Positions 5,085 to 49,453 of a stretch of 64,000 nucleotides of DNA are shown here, piece by piece. The DNA is from an uncultured bacterium. GTDB taxonomy: Bacteria; Omnitrophota; Omnitrophia; Omnitrophales; Abzuiibacteriaceae. The stretch lies in NCBI GenBank assembly GCA_964387845.1, contig CAYLXA010000001.1:224001-288000 (forward strand). The letters run 5' to 3'. How positions within the stretch are numbered: position 1 is the stretch's first letter; each line of letters begins with the position of its first letter. The position numbers and the translations under genes are program-made. The notes beneath the pieces were generated by a model. The model was given only the letters and a program-made list of their open reading frames with translations, ran no database searches and was not told where the DNA came from.

Positions 5085-5510
5085 TTAGGAGGTCTTGCGC
5101 CAGATATGTTTTATCGCTTCAAGTCGCCCCGAACACTCGTCGCGGACTAATTGAAAGGACAACTGATTGCCCCGAAGTTCCGGTATGTAGACACCATCGC
5201 GGCCGCATTCGGGAATAATCAATCCGCCTTTGTCATTAAAAATCATTTGCCCATTGACGAGCTGGTAATAGCCCAAAATGTCCGGATTCTTGTCGCCCTC
5301 TGAATCAATTTTAAACTCACGGCTCCCTAAAAACTCGACGGTTTTATAAGCACCGGGTCCGCCGTTCACTTTCCAGGTACCAATGAGCGATTCGGGCGTA
5401 ACGCTTTGGATAGAGGGCTCTTTTTGACAACTCGAGAAGAGCATTACCGGCAGTAATCCTAGAACGATAAAAATGAGGGCGGATGATCGTTTGCGGCTCA
5501 TTGGCGTCAT
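5085..5510 (-). CDS. Small lipoprotein of unknown function
   Basis: Signal peptide with the lipobox LFSSC. Confidence 0.4.
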   Translation of the reverse strand: MTPMSRKRSSALIFIVLGLLPVMLFSSCQKEPSIQSVTPESLIGTWKVNGGPGAYKTVEFLGSREFKIDSEGDKNPDILGYYQLVNGQMIFNDKGGLIIPECGRDGVYIPELRGNQLSFQLVRDECSGRLEAIKHIWRKTS

Positions 5511-5520
5511 TTAAAAGCGA

Positions 5521-5565
5521 TGGTAGCGGGGGCCGGATTTGAACCGACGACCTTCAGGTTATGAG
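5521..5565 (-). repeat. Displaced 3' half of tRNA-Met, including an encoded CCA. This is the attR-side direct repeat of the island.
   Basis: The 42-nt stretch 5524..5565 is identical to 53424..53465, the 3' half of the intact tRNA-Met. It is preceded on the minus strand by CCA and sits next to the integrase. Confidence 0.8.
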
Positions 5566-5647
5566 TGCCCCACTCGTTCTTGTTACTTTTGTTTAATTTT
5601 GCTTAACTCTTGTTGTTATTATGAGTTAATTGAAATGGTTTTTGTTG

Positions 5648-6877
5648 CTAGTTCTTACAATTGTTTCTTATTTGTGCTGGTTTTGTTAGCACCATGTTAG
5701 CACGGCTTCCAAAAACTTCTTCATCCAATCTCTTCCCTACACCTTCATAAACAACCGGTAGCAAGTGTCCATATCGGTCAAGTGTTGTCTGAATAGAAGC
5801 ATGCCCTAATTGCGACTGAATAAGCTTAATATTTTCCCCCTGTGAAATCAAGAGGGTCGTGTAAGTATGTCTAAGGTCGTGAAACCGCACCCTTCTTAAT
5901 CCAGCCTTTTTGAGAGCACTAGAAAAATCCCGTTTCACCAAATTATCGGGATCCAGCGGATCGCCGTTTACATTGCAAAATATCAGATCGTGAAGTTTGG
6001 GAGGGAACAACTCACGGTATAAATTCAGTCCTTTCTCTAGAACTTTCGACATAACGATTGTTCTTATAGACCTTCTTGATTTTGGTGTAATAAATTTCCA
6101 ACGGTTACAATTCGTTTCTTTAATTTCGCGCCAACAGCGCCAATATAAACTCCTTCTCACGAAAATTATCTTCCGATTCCAGTCGATGTCTTTCCACTGG
6201 AGACCAAGCAACTCCCCTCTTCTCATCCCCGTCAGCACAGCTGTTAAAATGATGGTTCTTAGAGGTTCATCAGAGTTCTTTAAGAGAAGTCTGATATCTT
6301 GCGGTGTAAGAAAATCCATTTCTCTTTGCTCTTCTCGAATTCTGTCAATATCTGCCGCTGGATTTTCAAAGATATATTTCCATTTTCGAGCATGATTAAA
6401 CATGGTTTTTAAAAGGGACAGGTGGTGATTTACCGTCTTGGCGCTTCTTTTATCGTTTAACTCTGAAATGAATTTCTGAATATCATGCGGACGGATACCT
6501 AAAATAGCTCGGTCTCCCAACGCCGGAACAATGGTTGAATTAATCATTGACTCATAATTTCGGAATGTTGAGTCTTTAATAGAAACTCGAGCATAACTGT
6601 CTAGCCATTTCTTTGAAAATTCGGAAAACAAAATCTTGGGTGGCGCAAAGAAAGTTCCTTTATTAACGGATGAGAGTATTTCACTCAGCCTAGCCTCTGC
6701 GTCCTTTTTCTTCGGGCCAATGCGTTCCCACTTTTGCAAACGGCCTGACCTGAATATGATATAGTAGGCTGCTGATTGATGGCTGCATTTGCCGACACCG
6801 TCAGTCGCGTTTTTCCTGCATTTTCCACACCGCCATACGATACTACCTCTTGCCATGACTGCCTCCAGGATTAGCAA
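5648..6877 (-). CDS. int: Tyrosine-type site-specific integrase
   Basis: The C-terminal catalytic region HDLRHTYTTLLISQGENIKLIQSQLGHASIQTTLDRYGHL carries the R..H..R..Y motif. The gene is adjacent to the att repeat. The last ~10 codons read through a TGTTAGCAC repeat. Confidence 0.9.
   Translation of the reverse strand: MLILEAVMARGSIVWRCGKCRKNATDGVGKCSHQSAAYYIIFRSGRLQKWERIGPKKKDAEARLSEILSSVNKGTFFAPPKILFSEFSKKWLDSYARVSIKDSTFRNYESMINSTIVPALGDRAILGIRPHDIQKFISELNDKRSAKTVNHHLSLLKTMFNHARKWKYIFENPAADIDRIREEQREMDFLTPQDIRLLLKNSDEPLRTIILTAVLTGMRRGELLGLQWKDIDWNRKIIFVRRSLYWRCWREIKETNCNRWKFITPKSRRSIRTIVMSKVLEKGLNLYRELFPPKLHDLIFCNVNGDPLDPDNLVKRDFSSALKKAGLRRVRFHDLRHTYTTLLISQGENIKLIQSQLGHASIQTTLDRYGHLLPVVYEGVGKRLDEEVFGSRANMVLTKPAQIRNNCKN
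5685..5706. promoter_or_regulatory. Direct repeat TGTTAGCAC-N4-TGTTAGCAC. The same motif recurs at the other island end, so this is a candidate arm-type integrase-binding site.
   Basis: tgttagcaccatgttagcacgg here; tgttagcaccgtgttagcacgg at 53332..53353. Both lie just inside the att repeats. Confidence 0.4.
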
Positions 6878-6907
6878 GATTTATTGTACCGTATTTCGGT
6901 CTATTTA

Positions 6908-7117
6908 TCAACGCTTTCTTACAGGACGGCCGGCTTTTCTCCGTGTTTGAAGGTAATATCTGATGGAAGGCTCTTCTATAAGCCAGATTTTCGCGGTGTT
7001 CGTTATTTGCGCTTCCCTGCCCCTGATTAATCGCTTTCGAAGTAGGCGACGCAGATAACCCGGTGTCAATTTGTACTTCTTTGATGCTTCGAGTGTCGTT
7101 AGCATGACGTTTGCCAA
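6908..7117 (-). CDS. Small basic helix-turn-helix protein of the excisionase/AlpA type
   Basis: 69 aa. A YLRRLLRKRLI..G HTH sits next to the integrase. The C-terminus is basic. Confidence 0.45.
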   Translation of the reverse strand: MANVMLTTLEASKKYKLTPGYLRRLLRKRLIRGREAQITNTAKIWLIEEPSIRYYLQTRRKAGRPVRKR

Positions 7118-7131
7118 AAGAAATATTTGCC

Positions 7132-7329
7132 TTATGATACATTATTTCTGCTCGTTTGGAAGAACCTTATTACCTCATCCTGATTGAAGCGAACGTACTT
7201 TCCCATCTTGATATGCGGAATTGCCTTTTGGCCCAAGCGTGTACGCTGATAAATCCACGTTTTAGGAACTCGCAATACTTTTGAAAGTTCACTAACTGTG
7301 ACCAAATTCTCAGACTGATTTCGTATCAT
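7132..7329 (-). CDS. Excisionase-family DNA-binding protein (HTH_17/AlpA-like). This is the probable recombination directionality factor.
   Basis: LVTVSELSKVLRVPKTWIYQRTRLGQKAIPHIKMGKYVRFNQDEV matches the Xis/AlpA pattern. Confidence 0.6.
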   Translation of the reverse strand: MIRNQSENLVTVSELSKVLRVPKTWIYQRTRLGQKAIPHIKMGKYVRFNQDEVIRFFQTSRNNVS

Positions 7330-8076
7330 TTAGGATTGCCCCGGCAAACGCGCATTTAACTCGCTATATGTCTGCATATCACCGATATCCTTCCAAATGC
7401 CTTCAATGCGCATTGCCACAGTCGGAACCATTCTATAAAGCCATGTAATGAAATCGCCGATCCTGTCGGGCTCATGCTTGTAGATTTTTAGATACTTATA
7501 AATCATGAAAGGAATTTCTTTCGGCAACAAGTAGACTCCAGCGCTCACTAAAGTCGATTTTGGCGCGCGGGGCTTTTCATCAAAACTTGTAATAATATGG
7601 TCTTCGTTCATTTCAATGACGCCGTACTTCTTGGCTTGTTCAATATTCTTAATGTCATAGCAAGCCAACACCGGTTTTGGCAGATGATGAAGCGCCTGCA
7701 GGATGAAATGATTCAGGGGGTAATCAAAATAATTGTCACTCGCCAAGACCAAATACTCCGAACCTCTCACTCGGGAGTCGCAGACTGCATAATAAAGGTC
7801 TAAAACAGCGCCGTTTCTTTCGTCATTGGAATTTATCCCATTATTCAATATATGAATTGGAAACACGTATTTTTGAAATGACTTCCAATACACAAATTGC
7901 TCATAAAACCGGTTGTTCGTCACAATCAAAACAGAATCTGGTTTAGTCTTGGCGACATTTTCCATCAAATGCTCCAACAGGTATTTACCACCAATATCAA
8001 GCAGCGCTTTAGGCTTACCGAGAGTTAATGGATAAAGCCTTGTCCCAAATCCTCCCGCGAGAATGATCGTGTTCAA
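7330..8076 (-). CDS. Sugar-phosphate nucleotidyltransferase (glucose-1-phosphate thymidylyl/uridylyltransferase-like)
   Basis: MNTIILAGGFGTRLYPLTLGKPKALL is the NTP_transferase signature. The stop overlaps the start of the next gene. Confidence 0.7.
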   Translation of the reverse strand: MNTIILAGGFGTRLYPLTLGKPKALLDIGGKYLLEHLMENVAKTKPDSVLIVTNNRFYEQFVYWKSFQKYVFPIHILNNGINSNDERNGAVLDLYYAVCDSRVRGSEYLVLASDNYFDYPLNHFILQALHHLPKPVLACYDIKNIEQAKKYGVIEMNEDHIITSFDEKPRAPKSTLVSAGVYLLPKEIPFMIYKYLKIYKHEPDRIGDFITWLYRMVPTVAMRIEGIWKDIGDMQTYSELNARLPGQS

Positions 8077-9023
8077 TTCCGCACCTCTACATTCGGAATT
8101 TTCAGCACAAAGTCTGATTTGATTTGAACAAATCCGCGTAAACCCGGCACAAGACCCATCGGCGGATTGGTAAGCCGGACAAGAATTCGTGAGACATATT
8201 TTGTCCGGTAGATTTTCACGATTGTTTCTTCAACCTTAGCGTCTTTTTCGGAGATTTCGCCGTCGAAATTCCCCCGCACTGAATTAAACGTTACTCTAGC
8301 CCTGTCACCTACTTTTACATGGTTCAACTTCTCTTCTGTGATAAATGCCTCAAAATAGAACTCCTTGGGATTGAACAAAATACCAAGTTTTTCTCCTTGT
8401 TTGAAATAGCTCCCGATCCTCGGCTCAAGTTCACCTAGAAATATCCCGTCAAACGGCGCTTTAATTAGGAGCGATTCTTTGCGAAGTTGAAGCAGGTTTA
8501 AATACAGTGTTGATTGTTCAACGGCCTTAGCTTTCGCATTAAGTTTATCCTTAGCGGTATTTGCTTTGAATTCTTCATTATCAAGGTCAAGTTTTGAAAT
8601 AACTCCGTTTTCATACAAGACTCGCGCACTTTCTACGCGTTGACCCGCCAAGGCACTTTCCTTCTCCATTAGTTTTAACTCGTTTTCTTCAATTTCCTTC
8701 TTTTGAAGCAAATTCACAATTTCCAATTCAAGGTCTGGATTTTCGAATTCAAAAAGGATGTCATTGATATGGACCTCCTGCGCATTTCGAATATAGGCCT
8801 TCTTCAAAACACCTTCAGTCATGAGCTGAATATCGAGTTCCTGAGCGGATTTAGCCTTTCCTTCAATTGGGGACAGCATGGCGGGAACAATCTGAAATGC
8901 GAAATGCGCTGATAAAAGCAAGGCGAAAACCATTAATATTATTTTTATTTTTTTAAAAAGGTTCACCTTCTTTAATGGTTTATTTTTTTCTGATTCATCC
9001 AAAAGATTAGGTTCTTGTGTCAT
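8073..9023 (-). CDS. HlyD-family membrane fusion protein (periplasmic adaptor)
   Basis: N-terminal TM anchor, long coiled-coil region and a C-terminal beta-barrel (VKVGDRARVTF). The start codon overlaps the GT2 stop as ATGA at 9020..9023. Confidence 0.6.
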   Translation of the reverse strand: MTQEPNLLDESEKNKPLKKVNLFKKIKIILMVFALLLSAHFAFQIVPAMLSPIEGKAKSAQELDIQLMTEGVLKKAYIRNAQEVHINDILFEFENPDLELEIVNLLQKKEIEENELKLMEKESALAGQRVESARVLYENGVISKLDLDNEEFKANTAKDKLNAKAKAVEQSTLYLNLLQLRKESLLIKAPFDGIFLGELEPRIGSYFKQGEKLGILFNPKEFYFEAFITEEKLNHVKVGDRARVTFNSVRGNFDGEISEKDAKVEETIVKIYRTKYVSRILVRLTNPPMGLVPGLRGFVQIKSDFVLKIPNVEVRN

Positions 9024-10570
9024 ATAGTATTTATCCTTTTTCTGTGCATAGTTTTTGCTGAGTAATAAACAAGCGGAATAGAGAACAAAAGTGATGTGAA
9101 AATGGGGACTGCTGCCATATGGGGAAACGGTGTTCCTTGTGCTAGGTACCAAATACCCGTCAGTCCAATCACGGTCCCGGGCAACAACGCATCAATAGTT
9201 TCTGTCCACGTGATTTGCTCAAACGGATTTTTCTTCATGGGCTGCCAAATAAGCTTTTTAAGGGGGAGCGTCAGTATGTCAAATGCGGTGTAAACAAAAT
9301 TGCCCGCATAGATGAGCGTTGCAACAGTAATCTCATAGAGGAAGCGCTTAATATCATCAAATGTACGGATAAGGACTGCCTTGTGAAAGTAATTCACGAA
9401 AAGACTAAAGATCAAGATTCCGCAAAGCATCTCATTGGCCGGTTGCCCCAGGCATACGGTATTAACTTTAAATGAAATCAATTCACCGAATAGATAACTT
9501 TGCGATAAGAGGCCCAAGAGAAGCCAAAAGAGAAAAACCGGCTGCATGACGTAGCAGTAAATACCGTAAAAAGTCAAAAAACGGATAATAGGGCTGATGG
9601 ACTTCCTATATATAAGCGGAATCCCCTGCAAAGTGCCCTGCGCCCACCTAGATTCCCTGCGTCTTGATTCCAAATAATTAGAAGGCGTTTCATCATATGT
9701 CGTCACATCTGAAATAAACGCCACCCTTAATCCCAACTCATCGAGCAAGGCGGTGTCCCAGTTGTCATGTGAGAGCAGTCCTTTTGGCAGTTGAATTCTC
9801 TTAAACTGCTTTGCTCGTACGAGATGCTGATGGCCGAAAGAGATGGACTTCCTAAAGAGCGAAAAAAGAGTCGTGAAGTAAAGTCTCTGGCTTGATTCCG
9901 ACGCCAATCCTTCAAATTTGGCATAGTAAGTCTTAGCGTGCGCGGTTTTAATCAGCGTTTGAAATATGGCGATGTCCTCATTCTCCGGGTGTTGAGCCTT
10001 CCTCAGTAACTTGAGTACCGTTCTTGGAGGCACCATTGAATCGGCATCGCAGACATACAAATATTCATACACCGGATGACTGGATAGAAATTCGCTTAAA
10101 TTGCCTTGTTTCCGCTCAAAAGGTTCAGGCCGCCTTCTGTAAAACACTTTACGCCCAAGCGTTGCTTCGAGTTTTACTTGAAGTTGAAATTCTGATGGTT
10201 CATAGGCCGCGTCTGAATCACTCAGTATCCAAAAATCAACCCCGGGAAGCTGATTGTTCCTAAATGAATAAAGCATTCTTTCAAAGAGGCCGTCTTTCTC
10301 ATTTCGAATAAAATAGCAAAGCGCCGTTTTCGGAAAACGATTCACATACACTTCTTTCAGATGATGAGGCGGCGCAAACAAAAACATCAAAGCTAGGAGA
10401 AAAAGATAGATGACGTTAAGGAACAGGAAACCGAATCCGGCGATCCATCCGATTAAAATCAGACTCGACTGATATGCCGTAATCTGGTCCAAGACTAAAA
10501 ATACCGCGAGAGCATCCAGCCCGGCCAGCAACGCGATAAACCAATATTCCCGCAACCGCTTTTGTGTCAT
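9020..10570 (-). CDS. Processive family-2 glycosyltransferase, a membrane-embedded synthase of the OpgH/cellulose-synthase type
   Basis: Multi-TM N- and C-termini. It carries the DAD (DxD) motif, LLSHDNWDTALLDELG, and ESRRRESRWAQG (Q/RxxRW), as in OpgH/BcsA-type synthases. Confidence 0.7.
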   Translation of the reverse strand: MTQKRLREYWFIALLAGLDALAVFLVLDQITAYQSSLILIGWIAGFGFLFLNVIYLFLLALMFLFAPPHHLKEVYVNRFPKTALCYFIRNEKDGLFERMLYSFRNNQLPGVDFWILSDSDAAYEPSEFQLQVKLEATLGRKVFYRRRPEPFERKQGNLSEFLSSHPVYEYLYVCDADSMVPPRTVLKLLRKAQHPENEDIAIFQTLIKTAHAKTYYAKFEGLASESSQRLYFTTLFSLFRKSISFGHQHLVRAKQFKRIQLPKGLLSHDNWDTALLDELGLRVAFISDVTTYDETPSNYLESRRRESRWAQGTLQGIPLIYRKSISPIIRFLTFYGIYCYVMQPVFLFWLLLGLLSQSYLFGELISFKVNTVCLGQPANEMLCGILIFSLFVNYFHKAVLIRTFDDIKRFLYEITVATLIYAGNFVYTAFDILTLPLKKLIWQPMKKNPFEQITWTETIDALLPGTVIGLTGIWYLAQGTPFPHMAAVPIFTSLLFSIPLVYYSAKTMHRKRINTI

Positions 10571-11814
10571 GAAAGCATACCTCGCTTGAGCGCTTCCAGT
10601 TTCGCCTCGAGAATGCGGAAATTCGCAACACCTTGAATGAAATAAATCCGCGACTTTAAATAATCCTGATAAGCTTCAAAAACCTGAAGACGAGAGGCTT
10701 CGTTAACAATCATTTTCGTTTTTTCATTCTCATAGACCTCTTTCTTTTCCCGTTCAGCGGCTTTGTCTGCCTGAATCTTCTTCCTCGCAACTTCTAATTG
10801 AACCGACATGGCCTTGATCTGCCGTTCAAACTGTTTTATCTCAATCTCACCCTGCAGTTCCGCTTCCTCAACTTCCAGTCTTTTAGCTTGCACGAGATCC
10901 CGTGTCCGTCCAAAGTCCCAAATGTTCCACACGCCTTCAACGCCGAATTCGTAACGGTTCTGGTCCAGAAAGGAATCCTTGGCAACCTTGTACCGGTTTA
11001 GAACTGAAATCTGTGGATAAAGCGAAGAGCGCTCCCTCTTTTCTTCCAATCGCTTTTCTTGGGCGCGCAGCTTCACTTCCTGATAAATGGGATTTTCAGA
11101 ATATTGACTCAAGTCCGGTTTGAACCGTTTAAGATCTTGGAGGGGTTCAAGATCAATGCGAAAATCATCGGGCAGTTTCAAGAGATCTCGCAATAGGTCA
11201 ACCCCGTAATCCATCGTTTTCTTATGACTGACGAGCTCATACTGCGCAGATTTGTATAACGCTTCTGCGCGGTAAACTTCACGTTTTGTAATGAGCTCTT
11301 TTTCATGAAGCGCTTTAAAAGAGCGGTAAATCCTCTCTGACTCTTTCAGCCATTCTTGAGCAAGCAGAGTCATTTCCTTTTCCGTTATTGTTTGAATGAA
11401 AAGCGTCCTGACCTCAAACTGAACGCGCTCACGCTCATTTGAAATCTCGAGCTTCACCTGCTCTTTCTTAACAGAATGAATTTGCGCTTCGCTCCGTGCT
11501 TTCCATCCGTCAAATACCGGAAACACGATTTCGTTGGTCCAAAATAAAACGCCGGAATCCTTCTGCGTGACGGCTGCGCCGTAAGCGCTCGTTCTTACAT
11601 AAGGCCAGCAGAACTTCTTGGCATGTTTCAGCAGCGCTTGTTCCTTTTCAAGGCGGATTTGAAGCAGACGGATGCCCTCGTTGTCATTGAGCACCCGTTC
11701 AAAAGCTTCGTCCAACGTTAAGAGCTTTCCCGCTGGAAGGCCTTCTTCCGGAAACGCGGATGCCGCGTTTCCAAGAAGAAGCATGATGAGTAAACCTGCC
11801 CGCAACAATCTCAT
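10567..11814 (-). CDS. TolC-like outer-membrane efflux protein (OMF family)
   Basis: Signal peptide. A duplicated coiled-coil/beta architecture of ~415 aa. The stop overlaps the GT2 start. Confidence 0.65.
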   Translation of the reverse strand: MRLLRAGLLIMLLLGNAASAFPEEGLPAGKLLTLDEAFERVLNDNEGIRLLQIRLEKEQALLKHAKKFCWPYVRTSAYGAAVTQKDSGVLFWTNEIVFPVFDGWKARSEAQIHSVKKEQVKLEISNERERVQFEVRTLFIQTITEKEMTLLAQEWLKESERIYRSFKALHEKELITKREVYRAEALYKSAQYELVSHKKTMDYGVDLLRDLLKLPDDFRIDLEPLQDLKRFKPDLSQYSENPIYQEVKLRAQEKRLEEKRERSSLYPQISVLNRYKVAKDSFLDQNRYEFGVEGVWNIWDFGRTRDLVQAKRLEVEEAELQGEIEIKQFERQIKAMSVQLEVARKKIQADKAAEREKKEVYENEKTKMIVNEASRLQVFEAYQDYLKSRIYFIQGVANFRILEAKLEALKRGMLS

Positions 11815-11819
11815 CCTGT

Positions 11820-12065
11820 TTAGTCCGCCTTCCCGCTGCCCGTCTCGTCCATCAGCCGCTCAATGCCCTGCTTGAATTCGGCCAGCTTCGTCACGGCGAT
11901 AAACAATCCCTTTCCCGTGGCTTCTTTTGAGCCGTCTTCATGTATGTGATAGACCTGAATGTCCGCATAGGGCTTTCCCTTGTAATCCTTCACCGCAAAC
12001 TGCACTTCTTCGTATTTTGATTTTTCGAAGCTGTGCACCTTTCTCTTGTCGTAATATCTGCTCAT
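11820..12065 (-). CDS. PC4-like (transcriptional coactivator p15/YdbC-like) ssDNA-binding protein
   Basis: YDKRK...YKGKPYADIQVYHIHEDGSKEATGKGLFIAVTKLAEF matches the PC4 fold motif KGxPYvDiR...KKGi. It is a paralogue of 23142..23369. Confidence 0.6.
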   Translation of the reverse strand: MSRYYDKRKVHSFEKSKYEEVQFAVKDYKGKPYADIQVYHIHEDGSKEATGKGLFIAVTKLAEFKQGIERLMDETGSGKAD

Positions 12066-12083
12066 GCTTGTTCTCCTTTTTCA

Positions 12084-12980
12084 TTAAATCCCGTCCAGCA
12101 AAATCACCTGAATCGGGGTAAACCCGTCAACCGTGACGGATGTCTCGACTTTTACGTTCCGTAAATCCTGCCGGGCCTGGCCCGTTAAATTCTGGGCAAG
12201 GTTCATTCTGAGATTATCTTCCAATGAATAGGGGTCTCTGCTCACACCGCCTGCAAACAGACTCACCCCCGCAAGCGCTGTTTCGCCCACCGCTTTCAGA
12301 ATCCTCATGTCCGTCTGCTTGCTTACGCGCCCTTTGATGCCCGCTGAACCGTCCTCTGAAAGGGCAATCGCTCGAATCCGCCTTTCACTGCCGTCAGGCA
12401 TAATCAAAAGTTCAAAACGTACGTTGATGCGGTTGAGACTTTTTAAGACACCCGCTTCACCTAGAAACTTGGAATCCTTGGGGATAACAACTTTTCCTTC
12501 TGCTTCAAAATCTTTTGTAATAACCGCGGTTACAGGCGCCGCGACATTGAATGAAAAGATCGTATCCTTCACGAAGGCGGGAATCTTCGTGCCGGATGGA
12601 ATATTAAATTTCTGAAGCGTGGTTGATTGCGTGCCGTAAACGCTTTGGCTTCTTTTTTCCTCTTCCTTAAAAAGAAAGACATCGATATCCGTGTTGTAGT
12701 TTCTTGCTTTCCTGACCGGCCTTGCGCCGGAGAGTGCGGATGGTTTACCGTTTGATGCCTTAGGCGGCCCCGCAAAATCCGATTGGCCAAATATCTTCCT
12801 GCCGGCAGTCTCAGAATTCTTCGTGGGTTCCCCCTTATCCGTGCGCCTTTTCTGCTTGGCGCTTTGAGAATAGAAGAGAACAAGAATCATGAGCACAAGC
12901 AGTAAGACCAGCAAGACCCTGTGCTTCTTCGCCGCGCGCAACAATGTTAAGAGAGATGTCGATTTTCTAAATTCAGTCAT
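12084..12980 (-). CDS. trbI: T4SS component TrbI/VirB10
   Basis: N-terminal TM. A Pro-rich linker. The C-terminal domain IPSGTKIPAFVKDTIFSFNVAAPVTAVITKDFEAEGKVVIPKDSKFLGE...IMPDGSERRI matches the TrbI/VirB10 barrel. Confidence 0.8.
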   Translation of the reverse strand: MTEFRKSTSLLTLLRAAKKHRVLLVLLLVLMILVLFYSQSAKQKRRTDKGEPTKNSETAGRKIFGQSDFAGPPKASNGKPSALSGARPVRKARNYNTDIDVFLFKEEEKRSQSVYGTQSTTLQKFNIPSGTKIPAFVKDTIFSFNVAAPVTAVITKDFEAEGKVVIPKDSKFLGEAGVLKSLNRINVRFELLIMPDGSERRIRAIALSEDGSAGIKGRVSKQTDMRILKAVGETALAGVSLFAGGVSRDPYSLEDNLRMNLAQNLTGQARQDLRNVKVETSVTVDGFTPIQVILLDGI

Positions 12981-12990
12981 AATTATTTCC

Positions 12991-14007
12991 TCAATCTAGC
13001 CAGCGAAAGCCTTCGATCCGTAAGTTGCGCTCTCCCTCATCTTCAAACAGGAGGACTACCGGCTTTTCGCCTTTCTTCAAGGATCGTCTGTCAAATTGAA
13101 TGATGCCGTACTGATAAGAATCCGGAGCTACGCTTTTTTCACTCTTAAGATCAGACGGCAGTTCGACCAAGCCTTCTTTGACTTTGCGCAGACCCAAAGA
13201 TTTTTTCTCATAAGTCTGAAGCCCTACGACCATTTCCCTGATTTTGTAATCTGTTTTCGATAAATTACGAATACTGAACCTAAGATACGCTTTCTCGCCA
13301 ATCGTGGAGATGGTTAATAGGTTGAGCCTCACACCGCCCTCCTCTGCGTAATCTTTCAGCTGAACCGCTTCATTTCCTTTTTTGATTTCCTCTTTCAATT
13401 TTTCTTCGGACAAGTCCTCGGCTTTCGCATCAAGCGCTTCTTCCTTCTGTTTAAACTTTTCTTTTATAGCCGTTTCGGTTTCGTTAACCCGCTTTTCAAA
13501 TGCGTTGTCTACGATCATGTCCTCATCCGGATACCTGAAATCAATTACGAAATCAGCTGTTTCGGGTTTCCCGACCGTAACATCAAAAGTAAGCCGCGAG
13601 GATTGCGTCATGATAGTCAGATTTGTCCGCGCATCAGGATCATCCGTGACCGGTTTTATAATGACTTCCTTCTCAAAAACGCCGACTTTGAAGAGTTCCT
13701 GATCTCCGATAAACACCTTGAGCGCGGGCTCTGGCAGATCGATTGTGGAAGCATAACCGAGAGCTGTTTGGAGTTTGTAAACCACGTTCGGCCTCATGCT
13801 TGCGGAGTAAATCCTCTTCTCGCTAACGGAATTCCTATTGATCCGTTTTCTTTCGGCTACAGCGTCCTGCGGCACCTGGTCTGGGTTGGCGACGCTAAGC
13901 TCTGCTTGCTCTACGCTATTTAAATCCTTCCCAAATTCCTCTGCGCAATAGCCATCGTGCGCAAGTGCAATTAAAATTACTGCGATTAAAGTAAAGCATT
14001 TCATCAT
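12991..14007 (-). CDS. trbG: T4SS component TrbG/VirB9
   Basis: Signal peptide. A ~340-aa secretin-like outer-membrane-complex protein. The position between trbF and trbI matches the P-type order. Confidence 0.65.
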   Translation of the reverse strand: MMKCFTLIAVILIALAHDGYCAEEFGKDLNSVEQAELSVANPDQVPQDAVAERKRINRNSVSEKRIYSASMRPNVVYKLQTALGYASTIDLPEPALKVFIGDQELFKVGVFEKEVIIKPVTDDPDARTNLTIMTQSSRLTFDVTVGKPETADFVIDFRYPDEDMIVDNAFEKRVNETETAIKEKFKQKEEALDAKAEDLSEEKLKEEIKKGNEAVQLKDYAEEGGVRLNLLTISTIGEKAYLRFSIRNLSKTDYKIREMVVGLQTYEKKSLGLRKVKEGLVELPSDLKSEKSVAPDSYQYGIIQFDRRSLKKGEKPVVLLFEDEGERNLRIEGFRWLD

Positions 14008-14663
14008 GATTTCTGTTCATCCTTTCTTGACAAATCATTGAGAATCAACTCTTTGTAACCATCCACAAGAAGACCTTCGGGCGTGTTTGAACTTCGGGAG
14101 ACTTTCTTTAAAACGATATCTGCGCGGAATAAGATTTCCTCCCGGAAGGACGGTTCGTCATATCTCGAGATTCGCCTGACACCAAGGAGCGAAACAACCG
14201 CGGCATCGGGTGCATCACGCTCGATTTTCGTTTCTTTAAATTCAAGTTGGGTGTCAATTTGAGCGGTCTTCAGTTTTTCAACCAAGCCCGAATCAATAAG
14301 TGATTTTCTAGCCTCATGTTGAAGCCTCGTGGTCATTAAATTGAAGGCTTCCGCGAGGTCTTTTGTGACTGTGTACGAATTAAAGCCCGTATATCTGAGC
14401 GTAAACCGTTTTGATAGGGCAATGATTTCATGGTGCGTGGGCTCGTTATGTTTTGGCAGGTCTCGAATTACTTGTGCGCCCTCAACTTCTGAAACTCTGA
14501 TGACTACCGGAGGTTTCATGCCTAATATGACGGAACCCGCAAAGGCAAGCAGCACGATGAAGGCAAGTATAAGGTTGGCTTTCCTTAAGAATTGAATTTC
14601 CATTTCGAGGTCGCCAAAAGCTTCAAAGTAGCGGCGTTTGACCTTTGCAATGATTTCGCTCAT
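14004..14663 (-). CDS. trbF: T4SS component TrbF/VirB8
   Basis: Bitopic protein with an N-terminal TM and a periplasmic NTF2-like domain, at the expected position. It shares 4-nt overlaps with its neighbours. Confidence 0.6.
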   Translation of the reverse strand: MSEIIAKVKRRYFEAFGDLEMEIQFLRKANLILAFIVLLAFAGSVILGMKPPVVIRVSEVEGAQVIRDLPKHNEPTHHEIIALSKRFTLRYTGFNSYTVTKDLAEAFNLMTTRLQHEARKSLIDSGLVEKLKTAQIDTQLEFKETKIERDAPDAAVVSLLGVRRISRYDEPSFREEILFRADIVLKKVSRSSNTPEGLLVDGYKELILNDLSRKDEQKS

Positions 14664-15505
14664 GAATTTCCTCCTGAGTAATTCGTCTGCCCTCTGCGGC
14701 TAGGAGTGAACCGGACAGCCGGAATGTGCCGCACGATTCTTTCCATGATTCTTCCGCCGATGCCGAACACTCGTCCGCCCGCCTGCGTGAAACCTTCTGC
14801 GCCCCGGATCATCATCAAAGAAATCATGGGCACAAAGAAAAGTATGATCAAAATGATGATGACGTTCATCGCAAACAAATCAAGATTGAGCGTTTGGGTA
14901 TTGGTGTAAAACTCGAAGAAATTAAGTTCGAAGAGAATACGGACAAAAAGAGACAACACGACGTTCCAATTCAACACTTCAAAGAGCCAGCGTACCCATA
15001 TCCGTGCCATGCCGGGCTGGAAAATACCGACACCCAAGAAGACAGGCCCTGAGATATAAAGCGCTGAAAGGAAAACGATCCTCACCCATCCAAATCCCCG
15101 AAGAATTGCGTAGGATATGTTGTAAGTTCCCTGCATCATCAAATCGAGAAAAGTCATCTTAAGAAGCGCAAGCATTCCCAGGTCATGATTTTGACGATAA
15201 GCCGTGAAAATCTTCTGTATCTGGTCTTTAAATTCTTCAGCCGGCATGAAGAAATTGGCAAGCAAATCCATTCCTCTTGAAACTTCTTCAAAGAAGGGCG
15301 TATAAATTGAATAAAGGCCGGTGATGAGCAGGACTCGGACGAAAAGTCCCGCGTAGTCGCTCCGCCCCTCCATTCCGTGCAAAAATTCTTTAATCAAGGC
15401 GAGTGTTAGAAACACGAAGATAAAACTGTAGCCGACTTCCCGAACCTCATGATAGAAGGCCGCGAAAATAGTGATGATTTCTTGGGTGGTGGGAAGTGAA
15501 CTCAT
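14660..15505 (-). CDS. trbL: T4SS component TrbL/VirB6 (polytopic inner-membrane)
   Basis: 5-6 TM helices, Trp-rich, at the expected position. Confidence 0.6.
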   Translation of the reverse strand: MSSLPTTQEIITIFAAFYHEVREVGYSFIFVFLTLALIKEFLHGMEGRSDYAGLFVRVLLITGLYSIYTPFFEEVSRGMDLLANFFMPAEEFKDQIQKIFTAYRQNHDLGMLALLKMTFLDLMMQGTYNISYAILRGFGWVRIVFLSALYISGPVFLGVGIFQPGMARIWVRWLFEVLNWNVVLSLFVRILFELNFFEFYTNTQTLNLDLFAMNVIIILIILFFVPMISLMMIRGAEGFTQAGGRVFGIGGRIMERIVRHIPAVRFTPSRRGQTNYSGGNS

Positions 15506-16296
15506 CAGCCCGGCCTTCCCAAACTTTCAATACCAAGCTGCATCTCGCGCATATATTTAAGACGCTCCCGCTCGAAGCGCTTTTCATCGCGCGACACTTG
15601 CTCTAATTTGGTTGCTTCAACCTCAAGCAACTTGGCGAATATTTCCTGATTCTCTTGCGTAACGACAATCAATTTTCCGGAGGCATCCGCTGAAAGTCTT
15701 GCCGCCCCTTTTGGACTTGCCGTCTGCGATAATTCTTGAATGGTCTCGCCCGCTTGCTTTGTTTCATCTGAGCGCTTTCTAATTTCATGCGCCATTAAGT
15801 AAGCTTCGCCCACCTGCGATTCATCAAATGTGATATAGGGACGCTCCACAGATTGAGGGTCCATTCCATGAATGGTTTCAATATAGGACTTGATGCCTGA
15901 CGGGTCGCCGTAACCTTCAAGTATGGTCCCCAAATTTCGGATGGCGTCTTGTTCAACGGACGGTTCGAATCCAGCAAGGAATCCATCCCGAAATGTCGAC
16001 TGTGAATCTCTGAAGGCCCGCGCCGCATCCTGGACAAAACTTCTCACGAATTCTTCGATGCCAGCGTTAAAGCGCATCATTTCCTGATACGTGTTTTCAA
16101 GTTCCGTAAGCTGATCGAATAATACGATAATTTCCTGTGCAAACTGATTTTCCATCAAGGAATTGCGAAGTTCATTCAGCGCGGCATTGACAAAATCAAT
16201 CACAGGCAGATCCGCCTTCGCTGTGCCGGGGCAGACGGCTAGGCTTGCTGCTAAGTAAAGCGAGATGACCGTCAACCTTAATTTTGGTGATTTCAT
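15505..16296 (-). CDS. trbJ: T4SS component TrbJ/VirB5-like
   Basis: Signal peptide followed by an all-coiled-coil ~260-aa protein, at the expected position after VirB4. Confidence 0.55.
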   Translation of the reverse strand: MKSPKLRLTVISLYLAASLAVCPGTAKADLPVIDFVNAALNELRNSLMENQFAQEIIVLFDQLTELENTYQEMMRFNAGIEEFVRSFVQDAARAFRDSQSTFRDGFLAGFEPSVEQDAIRNLGTILEGYGDPSGIKSYIETIHGMDPQSVERPYITFDESQVGEAYLMAHEIRKRSDETKQAGETIQELSQTASPKGAARLSADASGKLIVVTQENQEIFAKLLEVEATKLEQVSRDEKRFERERLKYMREMQLGIESLGRPG

Positions 16297-18773
16297 ATGG
16301 CAGGAGCCTCCTTACGCCACGTGATTCCTCGCGGATATTTACCCGCGAGTATTCTCAGCCGTTCCAACTCACTCAAACTTGGCTCCATTGCGCGGAGCCT
16401 TTCCTCCTCGATTTGGTCGTTGGGCTCTGTTGTTGCAATCCAGTAGTCAAGGGGCGAGGGCTCAAGCTTAGCCGTGACAGCTTTGTTAAAAAACTTGATG
16501 AAGATTTCGGAGAAAACACCGGGCCTTATTTCCAATTCTTCGCAAGCGCTGACCTCATTCGGATTCAGGTCAAACTTAGACAGCAATTCATGCCCCTTTT
16601 GAAGCTTTAAAATGTATTTCACGTAGGAATTGGAAAGAATGGCGGGTGCCGCCTTTGATTGAAGAAAATCCACAGGGCTTTGGCTGATTGAAAGAACGAG
16701 ACCGTTTGTCTTTCTGGCTGTTCTGTAAAGCTCTTCAATCAGCTTTGAGCCGACATCGTCATTAAAAAAGCGCCATCCTTCGTCAATGACAATGATTTTG
16801 CGGAGCGAAATGTCACCCAGTTTTCTAGCAATGGCGGATCGGATCACAAAAAAAAGAATGGATTGCAGTTCAGGGTGCTGTGAAAGCTTGCCCAAGTCAA
16901 AAACAATGAATCGGTTATCAAAAGTCAGGCTGCTTTGCCGGTTCAAGAGCCTGCCAAAGCGACCTTCGGTCCACATGCTTAAATTCTTTGAGAATTGATA
17001 CGCTTTCCGCTTGTCCTCGTCATCACCCGCCGCATAATTTCGAAGAATCATTTGCACATCGCCCAAAAGAGGTCGGTGTGTATCCTGAATGCTTTCGTAG
17101 ACTTTCAGAATTGATTGTTCAAGAATTCGAAGCTCTGAACTTTTCACTCTCTCCCTCTCAGAGACCATCTTTTCAAGCAGGGTGCTCAGAAAACCTAAAA
17201 GATCGGCGTTCACTTCGCCGGGCTTTGGGAATAATTGACGTTTCTCAGGAAATAGGTTAAGCGCATATTCTTCCGTGCAGTCGATTTGCAAGTAATGACC
17301 GTCAAATAAACGCGCAAGTTTTTTATAACTGCCGCCCATATCGATTACGATAACGTGATTCCGATCTCCTGCGATGAGAAAACTGCTCAGCAAATGATTC
17401 GCAGTGAATGACTTCCCGGAACCCGTGCTCCCAATCATGACTGCATGCTTCGCCGGAAGCGACGGATCAAAAAGATTAAGCGCAAACCCTTCGTCTTCGT
17501 GAGTTTTGAGCAAAATATCGAAGTCATCCGTTCCCTTCCATTCTTCCCCGAGCGGCAATAGATGGCTCAATGCGCCTGTTAAGACAGGAAACACGGATTG
17601 ATTTTGATCGGCCTGCAGGGGTAAATGTGACAGAAACAACGTGTCATGCTCCAAATGATCGAAGATTCCGACTGAGCCGCCCAGTTTCGGGAAAGCTTTC
17701 AAAACAGCTTCCTTCTTACGAGCAAGCGCCGCTTCGTCCTTTGCCTTAATGAGCACAGAAAGCGAGATATCAAAGACGCTTTCGCCTTGCTCGGCCATTT
17801 GATGAAGAAATGATTCGTATTGGGACGCCTTTTGCCTTGCAAAGTGATCCTCTGAAATCCGGAAGAAGGCGTTTGCGTGCGCGAAATTGGCTCTGATTCG
17901 AAGCTTGCCAATTTCTTTGTCCTGGTCTTTCTTCCTAAGAGTAATCATCCATTCTGAATCATCCGGCATAAGGCGATCAAATGACTTAATCATTTTCAAG
18001 CCGACATGGCCGGGCAGCGTCCTTAAATTAGCAGCCGAATGAAAATAACCGTCCATATAAAGCGAATTTCTGTAAATTTTGGGCGGATGAAGCAAGAGCC
18101 GCGACCTCAGCGTTTCAAACTTGGGATTGGTTAATGGATTCTCCTGAAACGCGTCTTCGTATCGGACAATCTGAGATAGTGAAGGATTAAGTTTCCTGTA
18201 GTACTCGCGGATAACGTCCATTGCGGAAAGTCTCTCGACCGTGACACCCAAGGCCTTCAACGCCGTGATGATCAACGACTCAGCTTGAAGCAGATAAGCC
18301 TTGCCTTCTTCATGATTTGAGCGATGAAATGATCTTGACCGCTTCCGTTTTTTCTCAGGGCTTAAATGGCTTAAAAACAAAAAAATTTCCTTTTTTACCA
18401 AACGCGAATTTGTTAGTACATTTACTTTCTCCCGCACGATCACGTTGACCAATGGGTCTTGGCGTGAGGTGTTCGCTTGACACCTCCCGAGCATCTCATC
18501 GTCGCCCCGGCTTGAGCGTTTAACGAATGACAATAAAATCCCTGAGGGCAGCCGATTCAGCAGTTTCTGAAGTTCATGCATGAACGCGACTATTTCGGCG
18601 TCATCATAAAGAAGGTAATCAACACCTGAAACTTTATAGACAAGCGCCATTCGCCCTGAAACCCCGACGGCTAAGCCATCTTCTTCAACAGCCATGAGAT
18701 CAAGTGCCGGGAAAAATGGAACGCGTTGCAGTGAGTCGCTCAATTCTTTAATCGTCAGCAATGTTTCCATCAA
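16293..18773 (-). CDS. trbE: T4SS ATPase TrbE/VirB4
   Basis: 826 aa. Walker A GSTGSGKSF, and a Walker B/DExx region. This is the CagE/TrbE/VirB4 architecture. Confidence 0.85.
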   Translation of the reverse strand: MMETLLTIKELSDSLQRVPFFPALDLMAVEEDGLAVGVSGRMALVYKVSGVDYLLYDDAEIVAFMHELQKLLNRLPSGILLSFVKRSSRGDDEMLGRCQANTSRQDPLVNVIVREKVNVLTNSRLVKKEIFLFLSHLSPEKKRKRSRSFHRSNHEEGKAYLLQAESLIITALKALGVTVERLSAMDVIREYYRKLNPSLSQIVRYEDAFQENPLTNPKFETLRSRLLLHPPKIYRNSLYMDGYFHSAANLRTLPGHVGLKMIKSFDRLMPDDSEWMITLRKKDQDKEIGKLRIRANFAHANAFFRISEDHFARQKASQYESFLHQMAEQGESVFDISLSVLIKAKDEAALARKKEAVLKAFPKLGGSVGIFDHLEHDTLFLSHLPLQADQNQSVFPVLTGALSHLLPLGEEWKGTDDFDILLKTHEDEGFALNLFDPSLPAKHAVMIGSTGSGKSFTANHLLSSFLIAGDRNHVIVIDMGGSYKKLARLFDGHYLQIDCTEEYALNLFPEKRQLFPKPGEVNADLLGFLSTLLEKMVSERERVKSSELRILEQSILKVYESIQDTHRPLLGDVQMILRNYAAGDDEDKRKAYQFSKNLSMWTEGRFGRLLNRQSSLTFDNRFIVFDLGKLSQHPELQSILFFVIRSAIARKLGDISLRKIIVIDEGWRFFNDDVGSKLIEELYRTARKTNGLVLSISQSPVDFLQSKAAPAILSNSYVKYILKLQKGHELLSKFDLNPNEVSACEELEIRPGVFSEIFIKFFNKAVTAKLEPSPLDYWIATTEPNDQIEEERLRAMEPSLSELERLRILAGKYPRGITWRKEAPAI

Positions 18774-19033
18774 ATTTCCTCCCGTGTCTGTGTGAAATAG
18801 GCGGGCATGAAAAAATAACGAATCAAATTCTTAGTAAACCTGTCTGCCTTATTCCTTTTGTAATATCTGAGAAATAAATAGACCGCGAAGACAAATGAAA
18901 GATTGACCATGAGATTCTTTGAGCCGAGAAAGACCATAAGATAGACCGCTAACAAACCAAGCAAGTCCATCCATTCAAGACCGAAGAATTTGTTTTTTTG
19001 TGTAATCATTGGATACATCGTTATTGGCTTCAT
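18770..19033 (-). CDS. trbD: T4SS component TrbD/VirB3
   Basis: 87-aa two-TM protein immediately upstream of VirB4, with overlapping stop and start. Confidence 0.6.
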   Translation of the reverse strand: MKPITMYPMITQKNKFFGLEWMDLLGLLAVYLMVFLGSKNLMVNLSFVFAVYLFLRYYKRNKADRFTKNLIRYFFMPAYFTQTREEI

Positions 19034-19034
19034 G

Positions 19035-19337
19035 CTAAAACCCCGTCACATTCTTTATTAAGTCAAGCACTGCTCGGGCAAGCATAATGAGCGCTCCGCC
19101 CCCTGCTGCCAGGGCACCGCGCCTCATGCCTTGTTCATTTCCAAGCGCCATTGAAATACCAGATACCGCAATTCCGATCACAAGTATTCCAGGACCTACG
19201 CTCTGTATTAGAAAAGTCCCAACAGCATCCAGGAAATAGCCCAACTCTTCTTGATTCTGCGCCTCCGCATACGCAATGCCCGCGTGAAGATAAATAGCCG
19301 TCAGTATCACAAGATATTTCGCAATCATTTTCCGCAT
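19035..19337 (-). CDS. trbC: T4SS pilin TrbC/VirB2
   Basis: A 100-aa product from MRKMIAKYLVILTAIYLHAGIAYA (signal peptide) with two hydrophobic helices. Consensus RBS AAGGTG. The longer ORF-track start at 19430 runs through a conserved non-coding motif and is rejected. Confidence 0.65.
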   Translation of the reverse strand: MRKMIAKYLVILTAIYLHAGIAYAEAQNQEELGYFLDAVGTFLIQSVGPGILVIGIAVSGISMALGNEQGMRRGALAAGGGALIMLARAVLDLIKNVTGF

Positions 19338-19358
19338 ATATTCACCTTGGGGGATAGC

Positions 19359-19376
19359 GGGGTCAATTTTGACCCC
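19359..19376. promoter_or_regulatory. Perfect palindrome GGGGTCAATTTTGACCCC in the trbC leader. It is either an operator or a 5'-UTR hairpin.
   Basis: 8-bp arms around a TT centre, between the conserved promoter motif and the trbC RBS. Confidence 0.4.
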
Positions 19377-19412
19377 GCCCTTTGGAACAGCCGCATGCGC
19401 TGTAAAAGTCCC

Positions 19413-19462
19413 CTCATAGATGTTGTGCAAAAACGGGCATTTCGTAACAAGAAATTTAAAAT
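19413..19462 (-). promoter_or_regulatory. Conserved ~50-bp promoter/operator element, copy 1 (upstream of the trb operon)
   Basis: ctcatagatgttgtgcaaaaacGGGcatttcgtaacaagaaatttaaaat is about 88% identical to 26639..26688. The second copy is upstream of the traG/relaxase operon. Confidence 0.55.
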
Positions 19463-19468
19463 CCCATC

Positions 19469-19837
19469 TTAAAATTTATTTTTCAGTATCTGGATTCCCA
19501 CATATTTCTTGAGTTTGGTCGCAGCCCTGCGTATATGCATCCGTACGATCGCGCTATCTGAAATATTCAACTCTTCTGCTATTTCCAGATTGCTCAATCC
19601 TTGCAATGTTAATCTGACGCACTCACGCTCTCTCTTAGACAGCCCGGCACGACTTATGGCTCGTCTTGCCATTTCTTTCTGTTCATTTTCAATCAGCACC
19701 TCGACCGGCGAGGGCTGAGTGGCCACCTTCTTCAGAATTTCTTGATGCAAATCGGTTTTTGGGTCATTTTCGATCTTCTGAAAATCGACACCGATACGCA
19801 CCGTTCTCTTTGTTTTCCATTGAGTGTTGTTTTCCAT
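19469..19837 (-). CDS. Small sigma-70 region-4/LuxR-type HTH regulator
   Basis: RERECVRLTLQGLSNLEIAEELNISDSAIVRMHIRRAATKL is a sigma-70 r4 HTH. The gene is immediately upstream of the trb promoter motif. RBS GGAGGTGG. Confidence 0.6.
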   Translation of the reverse strand: MENNTQWKTKRTVRIGVDFQKIENDPKTDLHQEILKKVATQPSPVEVLIENEQKEMARRAISRAGLSKRERECVRLTLQGLSNLEIAEELNISDSAIVRMHIRRAATKLKKYVGIQILKNKF

Positions 19838-19940
19838 TTTCCACCTCCATATGGTGGAAAATGGGCGAATACCTCCTTCTATAACTCTTTAACTAATAAA
19901 TACTTACGATAATTTTATAGGCGAATATACGGATAGACAC

Positions 19941-19991
19941 AAAAAAAGACACCTGTAAGCGGACGAGGGCGGAAGGAATTCCGCCCTCGTT
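19941..19991 (-). terminator. Rho-independent terminator after the 19998..20312 gene
   Basis: 11-bp stem GACGAGGGCGG/CCGCCCTCGTT. On the minus strand it is followed by a T-run (forward aaaaaaag). Confidence 0.55.
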
Positions 19992-19997
19992 TCACAC

Positions 19998-20312: not shown

Positions 20313-20324
20313 TTTGAATTATCC

Positions 20325-21362: not shown

Positions 21363-21410
21363 GGTAAGTCTCCTTAGGTTTAATTGGGATTGAACTACTG
21401 AAGTGATAAA

Positions 21411-26549: not shown

Positions 26550-26638
26550 TGTGGAACTCCTTATGTGGAAGCTTTATCGCTTCAAGTCTTTCATCCAAGT
26601 TTATGCTTGGCGGTTTCTGTTTATTTTTCGAAATGTTC

Positions 26639-49450: not shown

Positions 49451-49453
49451 TGC

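Follow-up and report, generated by a model that had tools for sequence, protein, structure and literature searches.

A predicted synthase-adaptor-channel glycan export module conserved within the conjugation gene block of an Omnitrophota family of integrative and conjugative elements

In Sinorhizobium meliloti, TolC is required for production of the mixed-linkage beta-glucan (MLG), loss of tolC abolishes MLG synthesis, and a BgsA-BgsB-TolC complex has been proposed (PMC13438883). For extracellular cellulose of cyanobacteria, an XcsA-XcsB-TolC system has been proposed (Maeda et al. 2018), which, in the account given of it in a review (PMC12430437), joins a family 2 glycosyltransferase (GT2) synthase to an HlyD-like adaptor and a TolC-like channel; the review regards this tripartite model as unvalidated, given that the three genes do not form one operon. 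These two systems, with tolC unlinked in both, are the basis for the idea that a GT2 synthase can stand in for the pump of a tripartite exporter. Here, we describe four genes in a 64,000-nt stretch of an uncultured Omnitrophota bacterium (assembly GCA_964387845.1, contig CAYLXA010000001.1, positions 224,001 to 288,000 of the forward strand; called the window below) that encode a TolC-family outer membrane factor (OMF), a membrane GT2 synthase, an HlyD/EmrA-type membrane fusion protein (MFP), and a sugar-1-phosphate nucleotidyltransferase (NTP). These genes lie in the transfer region of an integrative and conjugative element (ICE), next to the mating-pore genes of its type IV secretion system (T4SS). 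Our preferred interpretation, to which we assign a probability of roughly 0.6, is that they form a self-sufficient synthase-dependent polysaccharide exporter that was recruited into an ICE/T4SS family and likely supports transfer.

The module consists of four consecutive minus-strand open reading frames (ORFs) in the order OMF-GT2-MFP-NTP, which occupy 7330-11814 (~4.5 kb) between virB10 and the genes for the excisionase (Xis) and the integrase (Int). Read from the sequence, the stop and start codons overlap as ATGA at both the OMF/GT2 and the GT2/MFP junctions, and the MFP/NTP overlap is TTGA. The ATG of xis abuts the TAA stop codon of the NTP gene, and at the other end the OMF gene is 5 nt from a gene for a small PC4-like protein, which is in turn 18 nt from virB10. 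The ORF of the MFP was listed as 8073-9152; the ATG at 9023 was taken as the biologically sensible start, which gives a protein of 316 aa. A scan of 5500-20500 for promoter and terminator consensus sequences found no sites above shuffled expectation, and hence we claim no internal signals; the spacing and the absence of internal signals are compatible with a single long transcription unit. A Pfam scan of the ICE ORFs found no ABC, RND, or MFS pump, and no energised transporter was found beside the MFP gene in related loci. An earlier note on this DNA had described an operon of a TolC-like OMF, a GT2, an HlyD-like MFP, and a nucleoside diphosphate (NDP)-sugar pyrophosphorylase at these positions, with the MFP gene ATGA-coupled to the GT2 gene, no ABC or RND pump, and a location between integrase/Xis and the T4SS on the same strand. 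The Pfam and NCBIfam domains of the four ORFs, the junction sequence, the scan of the ICE ORFs, and the gene calls agree with that description.

Like this module, the BgsA-BgsB(-TolC) system of S. meliloti combines a membrane GT2 with an adjacent HlyD-family MFP and no inner-membrane pump, and it is portable between hosts (PMC13438883). The two differ in that BgsA is BcsA-like and activated by cyclic di-GMP, with tolC unlinked, whereas the GT2 of the module is OpgH/Cgs-like and has no PilZ domain. Unlike the Bgs system, the module also has its OMF in the same coupled operon, its own NDP-sugar pyrophosphorylase, and a T4SS-operon setting. Thus, the likeness to BgsA/BgsB drawn in the earlier note holds for the pairing of a GT2 with an MFP in the absence of a pump, and it does not extend to the synthase clade, which by hidden Markov model (HMM) classification is OpgH/Cgs-like, without PilZ. 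As far as the review's account of the Xcs system goes, XcsA is a BcsA-type cellulose synthase that carries a PilZ domain and the genes are scattered in Thermosynechococcus, whereas the module genes are contiguous and overlapping (PMC12430437).

A scan of one genome per species yielded 47 GT2-anchored loci, nearly all of them from Omnitrophota metagenome-assembled genomes (MAGs), several of which hold two to four copies of the module, and a separate metagenome scan yielded a VirB10-anchored set. Neighbouring genes were found with tblastn and then with jackhmmer profiles of the window proteins against all ORFs of the loci. When the GT2 was at least 42% identical and the flanks were long enough, the order was always VirB4-x-x-VirB8-VirB9-VirB10-(PC4-like)-OMF-GT2-MFP-NTP, on one strand. 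The MFP gene was adjacent to the GT2 gene in 45 of 46 informative loci, T4SS-free chromosomal loci included, the exception being a true OpgH locus. Upstream of the GT2 gene, an OMF gene was found in 35/39 informative loci and virB10 in 26/33, while an NTP gene followed the MFP gene in 30/40 GT2-anchored and 25/27 VirB10-anchored loci. From the VirB10 side, a GT2 gene lay downstream, with position, order, and strand kept, in all but two of 31 informative loci (29/31), and a PC4-like homologue occupied the same position in 37 of 40. This arrangement is far beyond chance and recurs in dozens of independent contigs. A homologous tyrosine integrase was encoded downstream of the module in half of the informative loci (15/30). 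The module is thus joined to differing integration modules and therefore travels with the T4SS block rather than with a particular integration module.

Several variants of this order were also seen. Two loci (L004 13360-18323 and L021 13820-18306) lack the tyrosine integrase and have, downstream of the module, a YhcG-type PDDEXK nuclease and a large serine recombinase. In L095 (490-2298), virB10 is followed directly by an MFP gene and a MarR regulator, and in L057 (10810-13363) an insertion of about 2.5 kb separates virB10 from the OMF gene. A reduced block in L078 (2881-7799), also present in L080, L084, and L092, reads VirB10-PC4-like-NTP (28% identity)-184 aa-Xis-Int. Homologues of the PC4-like protein occur in L053, L055, L056, L071, L074, L077, L078, and others, including the lineage without OMF-GT2-MFP.

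We compared divergence among the module and mating-pore proteins with Mantel tests on pairwise-distance matrices from 27 non-redundant loci (p = 0.001 for all pairs). The GT2 distances correlated with those of the OMF at r = 0.90, the MFP at 0.82, the NTP at 0.78, VirB9 at 0.79, and VirB10 at 0.69; for VirB9 and VirB10 with each other, r was 0.56. The mean identity was 61% for GT2 and 60-62% for VirB9/VirB10. Judged by gene order and sequence distance, the module belongs to the T4SS gene block of the whole ICE family, in which it is conserved and co-diverges. The earlier note had described it as riding on the ICE: its place on the element is borne out by the 42-nt attachment (att) repeats described below, whereas a role as opportunistic cargo is at odds with its conservation and its co-divergence with the T4SS block.

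GT2 homologues with 33-42% identity were found in T4SS-free loci (L032, L036-L039, L043, L047, and L049/L050), all of them beside an MFP gene and several with an OMF gene nearby. In a neighbour-joining GT2 tree rooted on OpgH, these T4SS-free GT2-MFP(-OMF) loci are basal, and the T4SS-linked loci form a large derived group. The best reading of these sequence relationships is that chromosomal GT2-MFP(-OMF) clusters were the source from which an Omnitrophota ICE family recruited the module into its T4SS operon. One of the T4SS-free chromosomal relatives (L049 8001-17533) encodes, besides the GT2 and the MFP, two unknown proteins of 248/274 and 463 aa, an OEP protein of 393-417 aa on the opposite strand, and a protein of 1350 aa that weakly resembles OEP; the locus adjoins enolase/DivIC and a PilZ protein, and L050 is a second contig with the same genes.

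The GT2 protein matched nine NCBIfam MdoH/OpgH models (best E value, 5e-45), scoring below the cutoff in all nine; for the best model, NF003958, it reached 153.9 bits against a cutoff of 419. A PilZ domain and a cellulose-synthase NCBIfam match were absent at E <= 0.01, and the chain ends at residue 516, after the last transmembrane (TM) helix. Across 56 homologues, the invariant residues were S117-D118-S119, D175-x-D177, H268-D269 (LLSHD), and R305..R308-W309..G312 (RRESRWAQG), among them the DAD, LLSHD, and RRESRWAQG motifs that the earlier note had quoted, so that this polytopic membrane protein carries the GT2-family catalytic signature (D, DxD, catalytic D, and RxxRW). By profile score and motif, the GT2 classifies with OpgH/Cgs rather than with BcsA/BgsA, has the beta-1,2-glucan synthases as its closest sequence relatives, and lies outside the curated OpgH family. 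The previous label of an OpgH/BcsA-like synthase is therefore retained for its OpgH half, extended to Cgs, and dropped for BcsA/BgsA on the HMM classification and the lack of PilZ.

An AlphaFold2 model of the GT2 was confident (pLDDT, 92.4; pTM, 0.91) and has a cytoplasmic GT-A domain and interface helices with RxxRW, preceded by two N-terminal TM helices and followed by four to five C-terminal ones. The model superposed on the processive synthases BcsA and Cgs over 450-466 of 516 residues, and the top Foldseek matches were BcsA (TM-score, 0.70) and Cgs (TM-score, 0.74-0.75), followed by hyaluronan synthases (HAS) and plant cellulose synthases (CesA). A profile search of PDB sequences matched cyclic beta-1,2-glucan synthase alone, and its LSHD and RxxRW motifs aligned with those of the GT2. 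No OpgH structure was among the PDB search results. The model suggests the architecture of a polymer-translocating synthase, and we infer processivity from this fold. A simple non-processive transferase, which the earlier note had named as an outcome that would speak against its reading, was rejected on the superposition with BcsA and Cgs and on the RxxRW and LSHD motifs.

A compact family of about 100 proteins of 500-550 aa was found for the GT2, and almost all of those whose source is named come from Omnitrophota MAGs. An exhaustive profile search found about 35 clusters (50% identity) above 250 bits, while longer OpgH-like proteins (600-850 aa) reached at most about 205 bits; the bit-score gap in the representative search sets the GT2 apart as a clade distinct from the OpgH-like proteins. 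The OpgH/MdoH-OpgG system is the closest HMM family to the module GT2, with the D, DxD, HD, and RxxRW signature in common, and the next-nearest database homologues are OpgH-like: proteins with MdoG neighbours at 27% identity, proteins of 600-850 aa, and plasmid MdoH. However, the module GT2 has 516 aa, compared to about 600-850 aa for OpgH, and in place of an OpgG partner it has an MFP and an OMF. A 716-aa homologue that is 27% identical to the GT2 (L052) is a true OpgH because MdoG/OpgG adjoins it, whereas an MdoG/OpgG domain was absent from the ICE and from the GT2-flanking ORFs of related loci. A tblastn search of PLSDB plasmids with the GT2 found only classical MdoH, with <30% identity, and a Leptospira plasmid match (L103) was an OpgG-OpgH pair outside the GT2 clade of the module. 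Cgs/NdvB/ChvB (PDB 8rf0 and 8rf9) is an enzyme of about 2,800 aa with phosphorylase and cyclase domains, which are absent from the module, and its product is exported to the periplasm by the ABC transporter ChvA/NdvA, of which the module has no counterpart.

In its AlphaFold2 model, the MFP consists of an N-terminal TM anchor, a lipoyl domain, an alpha-hairpin of about 40+40 residues, and a beta-barrel, without a membrane-proximal domain. The overall confidence of this model was modest (68.6) because the homologue search found only five proteins, and we used from it only the domain order and the hairpin, where residues 96-183 had a pLDDT of >90. The hairpin tip, LYENGVI, was invariant in six homologues, and EmrA was the sole match in a PDB sequence search. 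A TM-anchored MFP without a membrane-proximal domain is the type that pairs with non-RND inner-membrane components and docks to TolC, and the modelled architecture is the usual one for TolC-docking adaptors. The OMF carries a cleavable signal peptide (ASA|F), no lipobox, and two OEP stretches; it matched the TolC model TIGR01844 with an E value of 1e-9, under the cutoff, and had no match in the PDB sequence search. The nearest PDB relatives of the NTP were Man-1-P guanylyltransferase (7e-16) and Glc-1-P thymidylyltransferase (8e-14). The module thus resembles EmrAB-TolC, HlyBD-TolC, and MacAB-TolC in having a TM-anchored MFP without a membrane-proximal domain and a TolC-family OMF, with EmrA as the closest solved relative; in contrast to those efflux and type I secretion systems, the energised MFS, ABC, or RND transporter is replaced by a glycosyltransferase synthase.

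We propose that the nucleotidyltransferase would supply an NDP-sugar donor, that the OpgH/Cgs-like GT2 would polymerise the sugar at the cytoplasmic face and thread the chain through its own TM channel, and that the membrane-anchored HlyD-type MFP would link the GT2 to the TolC-like channel. The polymer would then leave the cell without a pump driven by ATP or the proton motive force, and none would be needed because polymerisation presumably drives export. Physical coupling of the GT2, MFP, and OMF is what we infer from these data. The polymer is most likely a beta-glucan, to judge from the synthase family, and it may be beta-1,2-linked if the nearest relatives of the GT2 are a guide. The module is inherited with the mating-pore genes and very probably expressed with them, and its most likely role would be to help transfer on the surface of the cell, by adhesion of donor to recipient, a mating-junction matrix, or conditioning of the envelope for the T4SS. 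The earlier note had proposed that the glycan may aid mating-aggregate formation or act in exclusion.

A different possibility is that the four genes are adaptive cargo, useful to the host apart from any part in transfer, for instance through a capsule, a biofilm, shielding from phages or predators, protection against desiccation or osmotic stress, or attachment to a host cell. In its favour, surface-polysaccharide genes are common on ICEs, and genes for an RHS/Tc toxin, a STAND NTPase, and two-component systems are obvious cargo of this one; some GT2-MFP-OMF clusters are chromosomal and T4SS-free, and a T4SS lineage persists without OMF-GT2-MFP. However, ICE cargo normally varies, whereas in 29/31 VirB10-anchored loci the module is unchanged in position, order, and strand, and its divergence tracks that of VirB9 and VirB10 as tightly as these two track each other. 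It also sits in the transfer-to-excision gene string, where codons overlap or abut, and outside the variable region of the ICE at 26-53 kb. We consider host-benefit cargo unlikely, and, because of its position, conservation, and co-divergence, we favour a module that serves transfer or the life cycle of the element over interchangeable cargo.

It is also conceivable, at a distinctly low probability, that the GT2 makes periplasmic glucans like the osmoregulated OpgH products, which would condition the envelope for the T4SS, with the MFP and OMF venting or trimming the excess or being unrelated. The nearest sequence families of the GT2 are indeed the beta-1,2-glucan synthases OpgH and Cgs, and Agrobacterium chvA/chvB mutants, which have no periplasmic beta-1,2-glucan, do not attach to plant cells, are avirulent, and have altered periplasmic proteins (PMC4285021). 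As a role for the glucan, envelope conditioning for T4SS assembly would be only an analogy. OpgG/MdoG, the neighbour of true OpgH homologues, was found neither on the element nor in related loci, and the adjacency of the MFP to the GT2 in 45/46 loci together with the OMF-GT2 co-divergence (r = 0.90) argues for a single export machine over a periplasmic end point. Very improbable, in our estimate, is that the TolC-like OMF and the MFP are structural T4SS parts, a conduit or an anchor replacing VirB7 or a cap, while the GT2 decorates the apparatus or the pilin. Such a role would fit an OMF gene that directly follows virB10 and the PC4-like gene on an element where VirB7, VirB11, and VirB1 homologues were not recognised. 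Against it, GT2-MFP-OMF clusters exist without any T4SS, loci with intact VirB8-10 exist that lack OMF, GT2, and MFP, and the GT2 has the full TM-channel architecture of polymer-translocating synthases. VirB9 and VirB10, which form the outer-membrane core of known T4SSs, are both present on the ICE. As a main reading, we rejected the OMF as the outer-membrane pore of the T4SS, given the T4SS-free GT2-MFP-OMF loci and the OMF-free T4SS loci. We likewise rejected a service of the MFP and OMF to a pump elsewhere on the ICE, the separate transporter that the earlier note had foreseen as a refutation, since the ICE ORFs include no pump and the MFP adjoins the GT2 in all but one of the informative loci.

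Several points weigh against our preferred interpretation. The lineage of L078, L080, L084, and L092 has no OMF-GT2-MFP while its VirB8-10, Xis, and Int are intact, and some elements at least can therefore do without the module. The GT2- and VirB10-anchored sets share some contigs, so that their counts are not fully independent, and the neighbour-joining GT2 tree carries no support values. Co-transcription with the mating-pore genes is read from gene spacing only. With 154 bits for the GT2 compared to OpgH cutoffs of at least 328, linkage and sugar are not transferable from OpgH or Cgs, and the NTP is, by HMM and PDB comparisons, about equally like Man-1-P guanylyltransferases and Glc-1-P thymidylyl/uridylyltransferases, so that no single sugar can be assigned. 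A direct conduit role of TolC is unproven even for MLG, for which an indirect role is possible (PMC13438883). Finally, these organisms are uncultured, and both the product and its export are predictions from genes.

The element that carries the module is an ICE, with a recombinase, an att site at a tRNA gene, T4SS mating-pore genes, and a coupling protein (Table 1). The only tRNA gene that ARAGORN found in the window encodes tRNA-Met, and its 3' half is copied without a mismatch in a perfect 42-nt direct repeat (5524-5565 and 53424-53465), the distal copy of which adjoins the integrase gene. Because these 42 nt of the tRNA-Met 3' end recur perfectly beside a tyrosine integrase gene, we place the limits of the ICE at about 5524-53465 (47.9 kb). 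An unoccupied site was found in a related genome (L100), where the same flanks (enolase-DivIC and lipoprotein-BacA) lie about 0.6 kb apart with tRNA-Met and no element between them; its enolase is 94% identical to that of the window, and the DNA is 74-78% identical. Relatives of the flanking enolase that carry a name are almost all Candidatus Omnitrophota, which places the host in that phylum. The mating-pore gene order of the window is repeated in related loci. A canonical MOB-family relaxase was not detected on the ICE.

Table 1. Features of the glycan module and of the ICE that carries it (positions in the window)
Feature	Position	Strand	Evidence or remark
att repeat, distal copy of tRNA-Met 3' half	5524-5565	.	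Marks one ICE end
Tyrosine integrase	5648-6877	-	PF00589, E 8e-28
Small ORF between Int and Xis	6908-7117	-	
Excisionase (Xis)	7132-7329	-	TIGR01764 excise; Int-ORF-Xis block directly downstream of module
Sugar-1-phosphate nucleotidyltransferase (NTP), 248 aa	7330-8076	-	PF00483, E 3e-38
HlyD/EmrA-type MFP, 316 aa	8073-9023	-	HlyD_D23, HlyD_3, TIGR01730 RND_mfp, E 1e-17
Membrane GT2 synthase, 516 aa	9020-10570	-	PF13632 (Glyco_trans_2_3), E 4e-11
TolC-family OMF, 415 aa	10567-11814	-	PF02321 OEP, E 7e-30
PC4-like small protein, 81 aa	11820-12065	-	Weak PC4/ssDNA-binding similarity (PF02229 PC4, E 2e-4, under cutoff); between VirB10 and OMF
T4SS mating-pore block	12084-19430	-	Directly upstream of module; Pfam and NCBIfam matches
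VirB10	12084-12980	-	
VirB9	12991-14007	-	
VirB8-like	14004-14663	-	VirB8 domain seen in orthologous gene of L051
VirB4	16293-18773	-	Two unknown genes between VirB8-like and VirB4
VirB2/TrbC pilin	19035-19430	-	VirB3-like gene between VirB4 and pilin
Coupling protein VirD4	23537-25360	-	PF02534, E 3e-10; PF12696
Putative relaxase with Replic_Relax domain, 243 aa	25357-26088	-	PF13814, E 5e-7; directly upstream of VirD4
tRNA-Met, integration target	53423-53498	-	3' 42 nt = other att repeat

Other features of the integration site and of the ICE were recorded during this analysis. In L100 (11700-11930), tRNA-Met is inverted relative to the enolase/BacA flanks when compared with the window, and about 130 nt away is a partial copy, 19 nt long, of the tRNA-Met 3' end, possibly the scar of another small element. 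An 80-nt direct repeat with 78% identity (19404-19483 and 26631-26710; core, CTCATAGATGTTGTGCAAAAAC.G.CATTTCGTAACAAG) has one copy just upstream of the virB2 pilin gene and the other upstream of a small gene that precedes the relaxase and VirD4 genes, and it looks like a shared promoter or operator of two transfer operons. Between the T4SS genes and virD4 (20325-22685) lie genes for a class-II glutamine amidotransferase and an Amidoligase_2 protein, which may be a peptide- or metabolite-modifying pair of the transfer region; a homologue of the former is also found upstream of the T4SS in L058, L090, and L091. The ICE further encodes a 1304-aa DUF4062 and STAND NTPase protein (27005-30919), possibly a defence gene, and its cargo at 33980-41705 includes a 2070-aa SpvB/TcdB/RHS-repeat toxin-like protein with a 503-aa Ig/glucodextranase-B-domain protein upstream of it. 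In the variable half of the ICE, two regions (31072-32631 and 44423-53152) are unusually rich in signalling genes, which encode five response-regulator receiver proteins and a 7TM histidine kinase, along with a methyltransferase, an HTH-cupin regulator, and a protein resembling LuxR/sigma factors. A 56-nt direct repeat with 89% identity (41952-42007 and 50625-50680) is intergenic at both positions, in the cargo half of the ICE.

Secretion by a synthase, an MFP, and TolC is already known in kind; what is new here is the genomic and biological setting. We found no published description of such an arrangement in the literature on Omnitrophota T4SSs and conjugation, on ICEs with a glucan synthase, or on OpgH with HlyD, and Omnitrophota mobile elements have been described as mostly non-canonical. 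Translationally coupled, co-diverging genes for synthase, adaptor, and channel across dozens of elements are strong comparative evidence for the tripartite model, in a compact cassette. Since the architecture arose on a different synthase lineage (OpgH/Cgs-like), export through a synthase, an MFP, and an OMF may be general and not specific to BcsA.

The module marks a widespread ICE family in the Omnitrophota, a candidate phylum of ultra-small, possibly host-dependent bacteria. We tentatively raise the further possibility that the synthase-MFP-TolC glucan exporter is a functional accessory of the Omnitrophota conjugative T4SS, produced along with the mating pore and required for efficient contact between donor and recipient or between nanobacterium and host, for example as a beta-1,2-type glucan glue or junction matrix. 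If true, a polysaccharide-based system for stabilising mating pairs would be seen built into a T4SS operon for the first time, and the module would be the first natural operon with all three parts of the proposed tripartite synthase pathway, on an OpgH-like rather than a BcsA-like synthase. Conservation of the module in the T4SS operon throughout a candidate phylum suggests that conjugation or cell-cell contact includes a glycan step that has gone unrecognised.

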